From assembly GCA_963752155.1 (NCBI GenBank), contig CAVVXH010000010.1, positions 576,001 through 640,000 on the forward strand: DNA of 64,000 nucleotides, given 5' to 3'. Position numbers and translations under genes: made by a program. This DNA comes from an uncultured Parachlamydiaceae bacterium (lineage in GTDB: Bacteria; Chlamydiota; Chlamydiia; Chlamydiales; Parachlamydiaceae). Position 1 is the stretch's first letter; every line of letters begins with the position of its first letter. The notes under the pieces are model-generated. The model saw only the letters and a list, made by a program, of their open reading frames with translations, was not told the DNA's origin and ran no database searches. Shown here piece after piece: positions 20,048-22,134 of this stretch.

Positions 20048-20607
20048 AATGAAGACTTTACATCTTGCCAGAACGTTGCCTCTAACAATTACGCATCTTA
20101 TAAATGCATCTTGCCATTGGTGCCTGACCTGATATTCTGACATTTGCCTAAACTACAACATAGCCTCCCAAAAGGGCAAATGTCAGAATGTCAGGTCTGG
20201 AACCAAGGCCAGACGTTACCTCTAACAATTACGCATCTTATAAATGAAGACTTTGCATCTTGCCATTGGTGCCTGACCTGATATTCTGACATTTGCCTGA
20301 ACTACAACATAGCCTCCCAAAAGGGCAAATGTCAGAATGTCAGGTCTGGAACCAAGGCCAGAACGTTACCTCTAACAATTAAGCATCTTATCTTTAAACT
20401 TTAGACTGAAAACAATGCTTCTTGTTAAGAAATGAAGATATACAAGCTATAGGAAGATGCGTTCTAGCCTTGGTTCCAGACCTGATATTCTGACATTTGC
20501 CCTTTTGGGAGGCCATGTTGTAGTTTAGGCAAATGTCAGAATATCAGGTCAGGCACCAATGGCAGATGCGTTCTAGCCTTGGTTCCATCAGGTCAAGCAC
20601 CAAGGGC
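20048..20607. repeat. REP/REPIN cluster left of the RAYT: empty site, hairpins at 20113-20210, 20262-20359 and 20467-20563 (inverted), collapsed copy at 20576-20607
   Basis: Near-identical ~98-bp units GCCATTGGTGCCTGACCTGATATTCTGACATTTGCC-loop-GGCAAATGTCAGAATGTCAGGTCTGGAACCAAGGCC. Confidence 0.93.
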
Positions 20608-20681
20608 GATTCAAAATTCGTTGCATTGAAAATTTCAAAAATGTAACTTAAATATCACACTGTTCATAAACAATCCATTTC

Positions 20682-21707
20682 ATGCTTATTATGGGCCGAC
20701 CAAATCGAATTCATAGACCTGGAAGACTTTACCACGTGATGTTACGAGGTAATCAAGGACAAACTATTTTCTTGTCAAATAAAGATCGTGAAAAAATGTG
20801 GTATCTTCTTAAAGATGGAGCGACACGATTTAATTTTTGTCTTCATGCTTATTGTTTTATGTCGAACCATATACATTTGGCTATAGAAGTGAATGAAATA
20901 TCAATTTCAACAATAATGCAAAATATAGCTTTTCGTTATGTTCAATACTTCAATAAAATGCAGAAAATTCATGGCCATCTTTTTCAAGATCGTTTTAAAT
21001 CAATTATTATTGAAGGTGGGCGTTATTTTAGAGAACTCATAAGATATATCCATTTAAATCCTGTTCGAGCAGGGTTGGTTAGTGATCCAATAAACTATCC
21101 ATGGAGTAGTCATAGTTTATATCTGCAGTCAGAAAATATGTGGATAACACGTGAAAAAATGCTTAAAGATTTTGGAAATGATTATACGGAAAAAATATAT
21201 AATTATAATTCTTATATCTTAGAAGGTGTCGATAAAAAACAAGAAGTTAATTTCCAAATAGGAAATAAAGGAATTATTGGTAGTGATGAATTTATTAAAG
21301 AAATGTTAATGTTAAACGAAAACCAAAATGAATTTATCAATGAATCTATTAACGTGATTCGAGATATGAATGGAAATGAAAATGCTTTTACACCAAAAAT
21401 ACAATTATCGGAGCTTATTGCAGGAATGTGTGCAAGGTATCAAGTTACACTCATGCAAGTATGTCAGCCTAATAAAGAGCGCAAAATTTCTCATATCCGA
21501 GCACTTTTAGCACTTTTAGTTCGTCGTTCAGAGCATTTATCGTTGGAGGCGCTTAGCAGTTTAATTCATAGAGAAGCGAGTGGACTGAGTAGGCTAGCAA
21601 TTCGTTTAGAGAGCGAATGTAAAAAAGATGAAGTTCTTGCTGAAGAAATAGTTATTTTGGAGGAGTGGATGAGTAATTATAAAGCCGATGATAAAGTTTC
21701 TAGTTAG
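20682..21707 (+). CDS. REP-associated tyrosine (HUH/Y1) transposase, RAYT, with a C-terminal helical/HTH extension
   Basis: Motifs YHVMLRGN, AYCFMSNHIHL (HUH), GHLFQDRFKS, RYIHLNPVRAG (catalytic Tyr) and YPWSS. Flanked on both sides by palindromic repeats. Confidence 0.93.
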   Translation: MLIMGRPNRIHRPGRLYHVMLRGNQGQTIFLSNKDREKMWYLLKDGATRFNFCLHAYCFMSNHIHLAIEVNEISISTIMQNIAFRYVQYFNKMQKIHGHLFQDRFKSIIIEGGRYFRELIRYIHLNPVRAGLVSDPINYPWSSHSLYLQSENMWITREKMLKDFGNDYTEKIYNYNSYILEGVDKKQEVNFQIGNKGIIGSDEFIKEMLMLNENQNEFINESINVIRDMNGNENAFTPKIQLSELIAGMCARYQVTLMQVCQPNKERKISHIRALLALLVRRSEHLSLEALSSLIHREASGLSRLAIRLESECKKDEVLAEEIVILEEWMSNYKADDKVSS

Positions 21708-21744
21708 ATTATGCCAGAACGCATCTTCCTATAGCTTGCATCTT

Positions 21745-22056
21745 GCCATTGGTGCCTGACCTGATATTCTGACATTTGCCTAAACTACAACATAGCCTCT
21801 CAAAAGGGCAAATGTCAGAATGTCAGGTCTGGAACCAAGGCCAGACGTTACCTCTAACAATCAAGTATCTTATCTTTAAACTGAAAACAATGCTACTTGT
21901 TAAGAAATAAAAATATACAAGCTAATAAAAATATACAAGCTATAGGAAGATGCGTTGTAGCCTTGGTTCCAGACCTGACATTCTGACATTTGCCCTTTTG
22001 GGAGGCTATGTTGTAGTTTAGGCAAATGTCAGAATATCAGGTCAGGCACCAATGGC
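21745..22056. repeat. REP/REPIN pair right of the RAYT (21745-21842 and inverted 21960-22056)
   Basis: Near-direct duplicate of block 20262-20563, including the spacer. Confidence 0.93.
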
Positions 22057-22134
22057 AAGATGCAAGCTATATTTGCCATCTTATTACTTTTTGATATATG
22101 ATGATAAAGACTAACTAAATTAAGGAATTTTTTT

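Follow-up and report, generated by a model that had tools for sequence, protein, structure and literature searches.

A putative TIRYT transposase gene within a REPIN-like population of terminal-repeat hairpins in a chlamydial genome

Introduction

The closest described relatives of the system analyzed here are the TIRYTs and TIRtrons (PMC3733652, PMC6006769, 10.1101/119735). Quentin et al. (2018, PMC6006769) identify subclass 2.1.2 of the TnpA-Y1 proteins with the TIRYTs of Di Nocera et al. (2013, PMC3733652) and equate it with RAYT group 1 of Bertels et al. (2017, 10.1101/119735). Their Table 1 lists FQ, YIHLNP and SS motifs and a DnaA-C tail for this subclass, and subclass 2.1 is given as the second largest group of Y1 proteins, present in 14.9% of species. 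A GGGGWSAS sequence in the terminal inverted repeat (TIR) is described as a feature of the TIRYT majority, not of all. Dispersed TIR families in dimers and clusters, with double-palindromic TIRs among them, have already been described for these elements. The current papers, in their treatment of the DnaA-like tail, leave open what it binds. For subclass 2.1 and the TIRYTs we found two genomic surveys, and no biochemical or chlamydial study.

The second related system is that of the REPINs and the RAYTs of groups 2 and 3 (PMC3116915; 10.1101/2021.07.10.451892; E. coli TnpA-REP, 4ER8), the only groups for which REPINs are reported by Bertels and Rainey (10.1101/2021.07.10.451892). As described there, a single-copy Y1 gene lies among hairpins that form an intergenic population with a master sequence, in which doublets are better preserved than singlets; tandem arrays with flanks, a stem mismatch and persistence across the species of a genus are also recorded. 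A third parallel is provided by the MITEs of DDE insertion sequences, in which a non-autonomous TIR-spacer-TIR unit is derived from an autonomous TIR-gene-TIR element.

Here we describe a locus in a window of 64,000 nucleotides (the whole stretch of DNA analyzed) from an uncultured Parachlamydiaceae bacterium. The enzyme class and dispersed TIR families were known already; what is new is an intact cognate gene within a 196-copy REPIN-like population, in a group said to have none. The locus brings together an intact enzyme and nearly 200 putative natural substrates, and the resulting predictions for binding site, cut position and stem mismatch make the class directly testable.

Results and Discussion

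The enzyme and its relatives

The open reading frame is intact (PF01797, E = 7.8e-14), and tblastn finds the gene once in the genome. The HUH residues H63-x-H65 and the catalytic Y122 are invariant in an alignment of 70 homologues. The rest of the architecture comprises an SS motif, a linker insert at about residues 218-240 and an HTH resembling DnaA domain IV at about 241-331. The protein carries the motifs NHIH, LFQ, YIHLNP and WSS, the middle residue of the first differing from the NH[YF]H/NHVH consensus tabulated in PMC6006769. The match of residues 224-326 to TIGR00362 is weak, and PF08299 is detected on most homologues and not on this protein alone, but a profile of the alignment matches DnaA domain IV with E values of 1.6e-8 (3pvp) and 1.2e-5 (1j1v). 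The predicted structure (pLDDT 90.9) matches both TnpA-REP (4er8), for which sequence alone gives E = 0.23, and DnaA domain IV, with a TM score of 0.85 to 3pvp and 1j1v.

By its motifs and predicted fold we assign the enzyme to the TIRYTs, TnpA-Y1 subclass 2.1.2 and RAYT group 1. The preliminary description had presented it as a RAYT with a C-terminal extension. The extension is real and corresponds to the DnaA-like HTH. Assignment to the canonical RAYTs of groups 2 and 3 has to be given up, since the score of 71.7 against the RAYT equivalog NF047646 lies below the cut-off of 80 and the protein has the subclass 2.1.2 motifs and the DnaA-C tail instead. Membership of IS200/IS605 is ruled out by a YxxNP sequence in place of Y---Q, the length of 341 amino acids, the single copy, and a score of 14 bits for NF033573 against a cut-off of 55.

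A genome scan with the single protein as query returned nothing; the alignment as query then yielded loci. The search covered 61 genomes and gave matches in 22, of which about a dozen are strong. No copy of the gene was found in the two same-genus genomes, G001 and G002, which are both fragmented assemblies, and its neighborhood is not syntenic in G001. Two partial loci on viral contigs were left out of the analysis. In one relative (G036:C20:43573-49454) two homologous enzyme genes lie 5 kb apart, possibly a recent TIRtron duplication. The chlamydial host that had been proposed is borne out by an Hc1 family match above cut-off (E = 8.2e-19, with 1 of 14 control genomes also positive) and by Chlamydiae MAGs providing the nearest named homologous loci; the OmcB family match is weak and below cut-off (E = 2.4e-4).

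Organization of the locus

The features of the locus are collected in Table 1. The hairpins, doublets and intact gene of the preliminary description were all recovered at its coordinates by sequence inspection, repeat search, alignment and script, as were the symmetric copy that it had placed 13 kb away and the fragment that it had placed at 44808-44830 (found at about 44810-44830).

Table 1. Coordinates of the gene, hairpins and remnants in the window
Feature	Position	Strand	Remarks
TIRYT gene (TnpA-Y1 subclass 2.1.2)	20682..21707	+	341 aa; likely start M4 at 20691
Tandem-unit copy without hairpin ('empty site')	20048..20104	+	junction 20069|20070, GCCA microhomology
Hairpin 1	20113..20210	+	TIR of A arm starts at 20119; TIR of B arm, after the loop, ends at 20204
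Hairpin 2 (AB)	20262..20359	+	left half of upstream doublet
Hairpin 3 (BA)	20466..20563	-	right half of upstream doublet
Collapsed hairpin	~20576..20607	+	where relatives retain the upstream TIR of the gene
Remnant tail of lost downstream bounding TIR	21713..21738	+	fused to 3' end of gene
Hairpin 4 (AB)	21745..21842	+	left half of downstream doublet
Hairpin 5 (BA)	21959..22056	-	right half of downstream doublet; palindrome reaches 21730-22071
Symmetric AA hairpin	7360..7478	.	TIRs 7376-7462; both common outer tails present
Truncated A arm	~44810..44850	-	end motif only, with outer tail 2

Each of the five hairpins at the gene is 98 nt long, spanning GCC to GGCC/GC. Four of them are arranged as two doublets (20262-20563 and 21745-22056) with their halves head-to-head. 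In the downstream doublet the outer arms (21730-21841 and 21960-22071) are 112 nt long and 99% complementary. A single hairpin folds with -33 kcal/mol (z = -8.6), and the downstream doublet with -146.7 (z = -28). The symmetric AA hairpin is likely to be a collapsed doublet. Of the TIRs that bounded the gene itself, the upstream one is collapsed and the downstream one lost. Deprived of its two inward-facing repeats, the TIRYT gene is likely to be sessile.

The hairpins are built from the terminal repeats of the enzyme family

In the relatives, one TIR lies on either side of the enzyme gene. A matched pair surrounds the gene at 60 of 84 full-length genome loci, or 61 once this locus is put in register, and at 44 of 69 metagenome loci with a full ORF. 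We excluded 24 of the 84 genome loci, L087 among them, that had no matched TIR pair or full ORF flanks; from at least 80 metagenome loci listed, 11 without a full ORF were removed, then 25 of the 69 without a matched pair, and two redundant ones were dropped. In the TIR, two direct repeats with a period of mostly 8 come after an 11-nt end motif; the self-match at period 8 is 0.48, compared with 0.23-0.25 at periods other than 7-9.

Each hairpin comprises two copies of the family TIR around a loop of 25-27 nt, and in both arms the 8-nt repeat is identical to that of the nearest chlamydial homologues. The arms have GGTGCCTG and GGTTCCAG in place of GGGGWSAS, aligned in register with the motif seen in relatives. 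Such TIR-built hairpins flank the gene on both sides; of the innermost bounding pair of TIRs, one has collapsed and the other is lost, as noted above. In the gene-bearing relative G047 the dispersed hairpins correspond to the TIR of its own gene. These simple hairpins are surrounded by unique sequence, and at 35 of 40 ends the motif is bordered by TT; beyond TT..AA there is no target-site duplication. The ends of the family are accordingly placed at the TIR motif and not at GCC. Across the family, a target duplication is absent at 90 of 104 TIRtron loci. Judged by sequence, the hairpins are gene-less miniature copies of the terminal repeats of the enzyme family. This is the relationship of a MITE to its parent element, with the differences that the enzyme here is of the HUH type and that the family makes no target-site duplication.

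Compared with typical TIRYTs, whose core, motifs, tail and GGGGWSAS-type TIRs are shared or homologous here, the end motif has drifted, the bounding repeats of the gene are destroyed, and the hairpins form AB-BA doublets with tails and nested cargo. The likeness to REPIN-RAYT systems is in population structure. The differences are that the GTAG tag is lacking, that the arms are TIRs of 27-33 nt with direct repeats and not small REP stem-loops, and that the enzyme belongs to another group and has an HTH tail.

A second composite TIR hairpin family is present in G021 (L287-L306), with nested double arms, the same asymmetry at nt 7 that is described below, and another 8-nt repeat.

A genome-wide population

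With up to four mismatches allowed, the 22-nt core of the arm occurs 411 times in the genome. The arm repeats are not a product of chance, because three shuffles contained 1, 0 and 0 copies. They are distributed over 146 loci as 196 hairpins, with a further 19 arms standing alone; among the arrangements are 62 AB-BA doublets, 20 symmetric AA hairpins and 30 AB singlets. For comparison, TIRYT families are 'moderately abundant' in the text description of the published survey, and a mean of 12 is given for the 16-mers flanking group 1. None of the hairpins lies within an ORF of at least 100 amino acids; all are intergenic. When the arm ends were tabulated, no GT[AG]G tag was seen at the hairpin foot. 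The suggestion of a REPIN-like population of long, non-GTAG hairpins linked to a Y1 enzyme is upheld by this count.

A master sequence is evident, with 36 of 162 AB hairpins identical. Hairpins in doublets have on average 0.27 mismatches to it compared with 1.3 for singlets (p = 3e-4), better conservation of doublets being a criterion used for REPINs in PMC3116915. Doublet spacers keep a length of 113-116 nt, and particular nested insertions are found in them repeatedly, at 7, 5 and 2 loci, with three-level cargo at 7. Shared outer tails on the A arms extend a median of 82 nt past the arm.

The two same-genus genomes contain a diverged family with the same doublet layout (44 pattern hits in G001 and 12 in G002), and the pattern gave no hits in the 58 remaining relatives. 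Identical twins exist for 47% of the 194 hairpins in this genome (G000) and for 37% of the 19 in G047, both of which carry the gene; with this genome subsampled to 34 hairpins the value is 37%. There were none among the 34 hairpins of G001 and the 10 of G002, where the enzyme gene was not found. In the five enzyme-bearing relatives that were searched we counted between 5 and 118 arms of related TIRs. Comparing orthologous sites with 585 kb of G001, 45 of 46 conserved gene pairs are empty in both genomes and one is filled in G001 only.

Other repeats are interleaved with these hairpins. Doublet spacers, for example at G000:C2:287-703, hold palindromes nested at three levels, with a TAA duplication at the insertion. 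The innermost palindrome ends in a sequence of the GGGGWSAS type, and a doublet of G002 (L048) contains a comparable insert. Genome-wide, the outer end of this cargo has 82 copies and the inner 26-38. In G000 the tails of the TIR hairpin family also contain insertions of other hairpins, GTAG-tagged ones among them.

Helix residues and the 8-nt repeat

We compared protein columns with the sequence of the 8-nt repeat in those proteins with R297, comprising 41 of 61 loci in the first set and 23 of 42 held-out loci. In the first set (304 columns, 41 loci) the columns most strongly tied to the repeat are 265, 304, 196 and 301. Columns 265, 301 and 304 align with R399, T436 and H439 of DnaA, in which R399 and the helix 434-451 are reported to read the DnaA box (PMC5742627).

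G301 occurs with repeat bases GAC in 7 of 7 cases in the first set, against 3 of 34 otherwise. A prediction of this association written beforehand gave 3 of 3 against 1 of 20 in the held-out loci (Fisher p = 0.002, uncorrected for kinship). This suggests that the helix residue G301 predicts the type of 8-nt repeat, kinship being uncorrected. The corresponding prediction of K265 with ATT failed on the held-out loci (1 of 3 against 1 of 20, p = 0.25), and there the mutual-information ranks of columns 265, 301 and 304 were unremarkable (147, 16 and 26 of 290). Tests on independent pairs went in the predicted direction, but comprised 2-3 pairs with p = 0.25-0.5.

A candidate break position and a stem mismatch

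Flank duplications of at least 7 nt abut 35 of 194 TIR ends, compared with 88 of 8103 overlapping control positions. Taking the duplications that include at least 5 nt of the TIR, 20 of 30 fit a break after nt 6 or 7, with none after nt 9-12 and a few near 14; a further 17 duplications that include 0-2 nt of the TIR fall mostly outside this count, and the reading was made post hoc, with the data already seen. At nt 6-7 the sequence is C|A in the top strand and C|T in the bottom strand. Both dinucleotides are given as cut sites of TnpA-REP in PMC8266576, C|A in one system. By analogy, and post hoc, the break position at nt 6-7 may correspond to cut dinucleotides of the TnpA-REP type.

Position 7 is mismatched in the stem of most amplified hairpins: 165 of 194 in G000, 26 of 34 in G001, 9 of 10 in G002 and 12 of 19 in G021, the three same-genus cases (G000, G001 and G002) counting as one origin. 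In these four genomes most amplified hairpins carry T there on one of their arms, whereas A or G occupies this position in all 204 retained gene-bounding ends. The absence of T7 holds for the retained loci; in the excluded L087, nt 7 of one TIR is T. A REP of E. coli is reported to require the bulge in its stem (PMC8266576).

How the hairpins may be amplified

We suggest that the TIRYT enzyme amplifies the hairpins in trans as a REPIN-like population, and consider this likely. The HTH is predicted to bind the 8-nt repeats, and the HUH core would nick single-stranded or extruded DNA at or adjoining nt 6-7 of the end motif, at C|A in the top or C|T in the bottom strand, aided by the conserved stem mismatch at nt 7. 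Strand transfer would then move a hairpin or doublet with a variable length of flank and without target duplication. The hairpins occur mostly as AB-BA doublets, whose outer tails and nested cargo are found with them at many loci.

Several observations count against this explanation. In this genome the TIR ends are not where the repeats meet unique DNA, the A tails share no motif at their outer limits, and a short duplication was found at none of 410 arm ends. The five hairpins at the gene are of a minor loop type (7 copies) and not of the master types. None of the 19 amplified hairpins of G047 has the mismatch at nt 7. Lastly, the hairpins are retained in G001 (99% complete, in 260 contigs) and G002, where the enzyme gene was not found.

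We raise more tentatively, and with rather less than even expectation, the broader idea that group-1/TIRYT enzymes run REPIN-type populations by a distinct logic. The DnaA-like HTH would read the two 8-nt repeats through a residue-to-base code and the HUH domain would nick at nt 6-7. In the chlamydial copies, with one arm mismatched at that nucleotide, this would give hairpins with a polarity, which pair into doublets and take flanks and cargo with them.

Some of the same evidence bears on the possibility that hairpins of old TIRYT-end origin are now spread or homogenized by gene conversion, or by hitch-hiking in composites moved by another enzyme. The composites do not terminate at TIR ends, 5.5% of the bases of the genome lie in 15-mers with at least 5 copies and several other families are mutually nested, a second Y1 gene is present together with a set of repeats of its own, and the family persists in G001 and G002 with the gene not detected. 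Yet identical copies are confined to the two genomes in which the gene is intact, the arms are far better preserved than the tails, and the 8-nt repeat is of the type predicted from the helix of this very enzyme. We regard spread by such other means as unlikely.

The second Y1 gene is shorter and RAYT-like, and lies on contig C11 (L139:2745-3350; match at G000:C11:40824-41105); its repeats are unrelated to the hairpin family. Upstream of it (L139:2060-2650) a different repeat forms four tandem units of about 120 nt, with one further copy in inverted orientation. The repeat of this gene is dispersed, with 15-mers in about 60 copies and an example at 44418-44723 of the window.

The hairpin-less junction

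The preliminary description had also noted a copy of the flank without its hairpin next to hairpin 1, and had taken it as an empty site that defines the boundaries of the element at GCC triplets. The copy exists, but the shared stretch is 4 nt (GCCA) and not 3. As a definition of boundaries it fails. The junction occurs once in the genome, and tallying the junctions of all copies gave a near-constant GCC on the left and a GCC on the right in only 44 of 165 B ends. The right-hand 'flank' is the tail of the repeat itself, lying beside a hairpin in 69 of 69 copies, and GCC falls within the hairpin stem. Other hairpin-less junctions have scattered ends, and the array at the gene holds further short deletions.

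A 98-nt hairpin that moves as a unit through cuts at GCC(A) on either side, with 20048-20104 as an unoccupied target or a precise excision scar, is for these reasons a poor prospect, and the TIR-motif ends of the family and their lack of target duplication weigh against it too. In its favor are GCC at both hairpin ends in the gene-side copies here and in G001 and G002, cleavage at C|A by TnpA-REP in the one system mentioned above, and the tandem flank-REPIN-flank arrays and excision scars that PMC3116915 describes for REPINs. GCC as a target duplication is rejected on the right-hand tally and the TIRtron loci alike. Most likely, the empty site is a deletion scar at a 4-nt microhomology within a tandem triplication, made by slippage or by enzymatic excision. 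Under amplification by the TIRYT enzyme it would be a later event, and not a pre-insertion target.

Finally, retention of the hairpins mainly as host RNA elements (terminators or mRNA stabilizers), with the enzyme a bystander, is very improbable: their intergenic placement, with 40 of 142 loci between convergent genes compared with 204 of 1297 spacers of at least 100 nt, would suit it, but this enrichment is modest and typical of selfish repeats too, the conserved letters are those of a transposase TIR and not of a U-tract terminator, and the 15 Rfam hits all fall below gathering score.

Other features of the window

The gene is part of a block (16900-22800) that contains an MBL/rhodanese gene, a hypothetical gene, an F-box gene, the TIRYT gene and a NUDIX gene. 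In G001 this block is missing between the same flanks, which are separated there by about 750 bp. Mirrored arrays of a 9-bp tandem repeat lie at 4260-4790, 11470-11620, 28404-28547, 36842-36969 and 57008-57109; these are the most abundant repeat of the genome, with 431 copies of the top 15-mer. Three tandem paralogous segments of about 1.2 kb, 64-92% identical, occupy 57428-60941.
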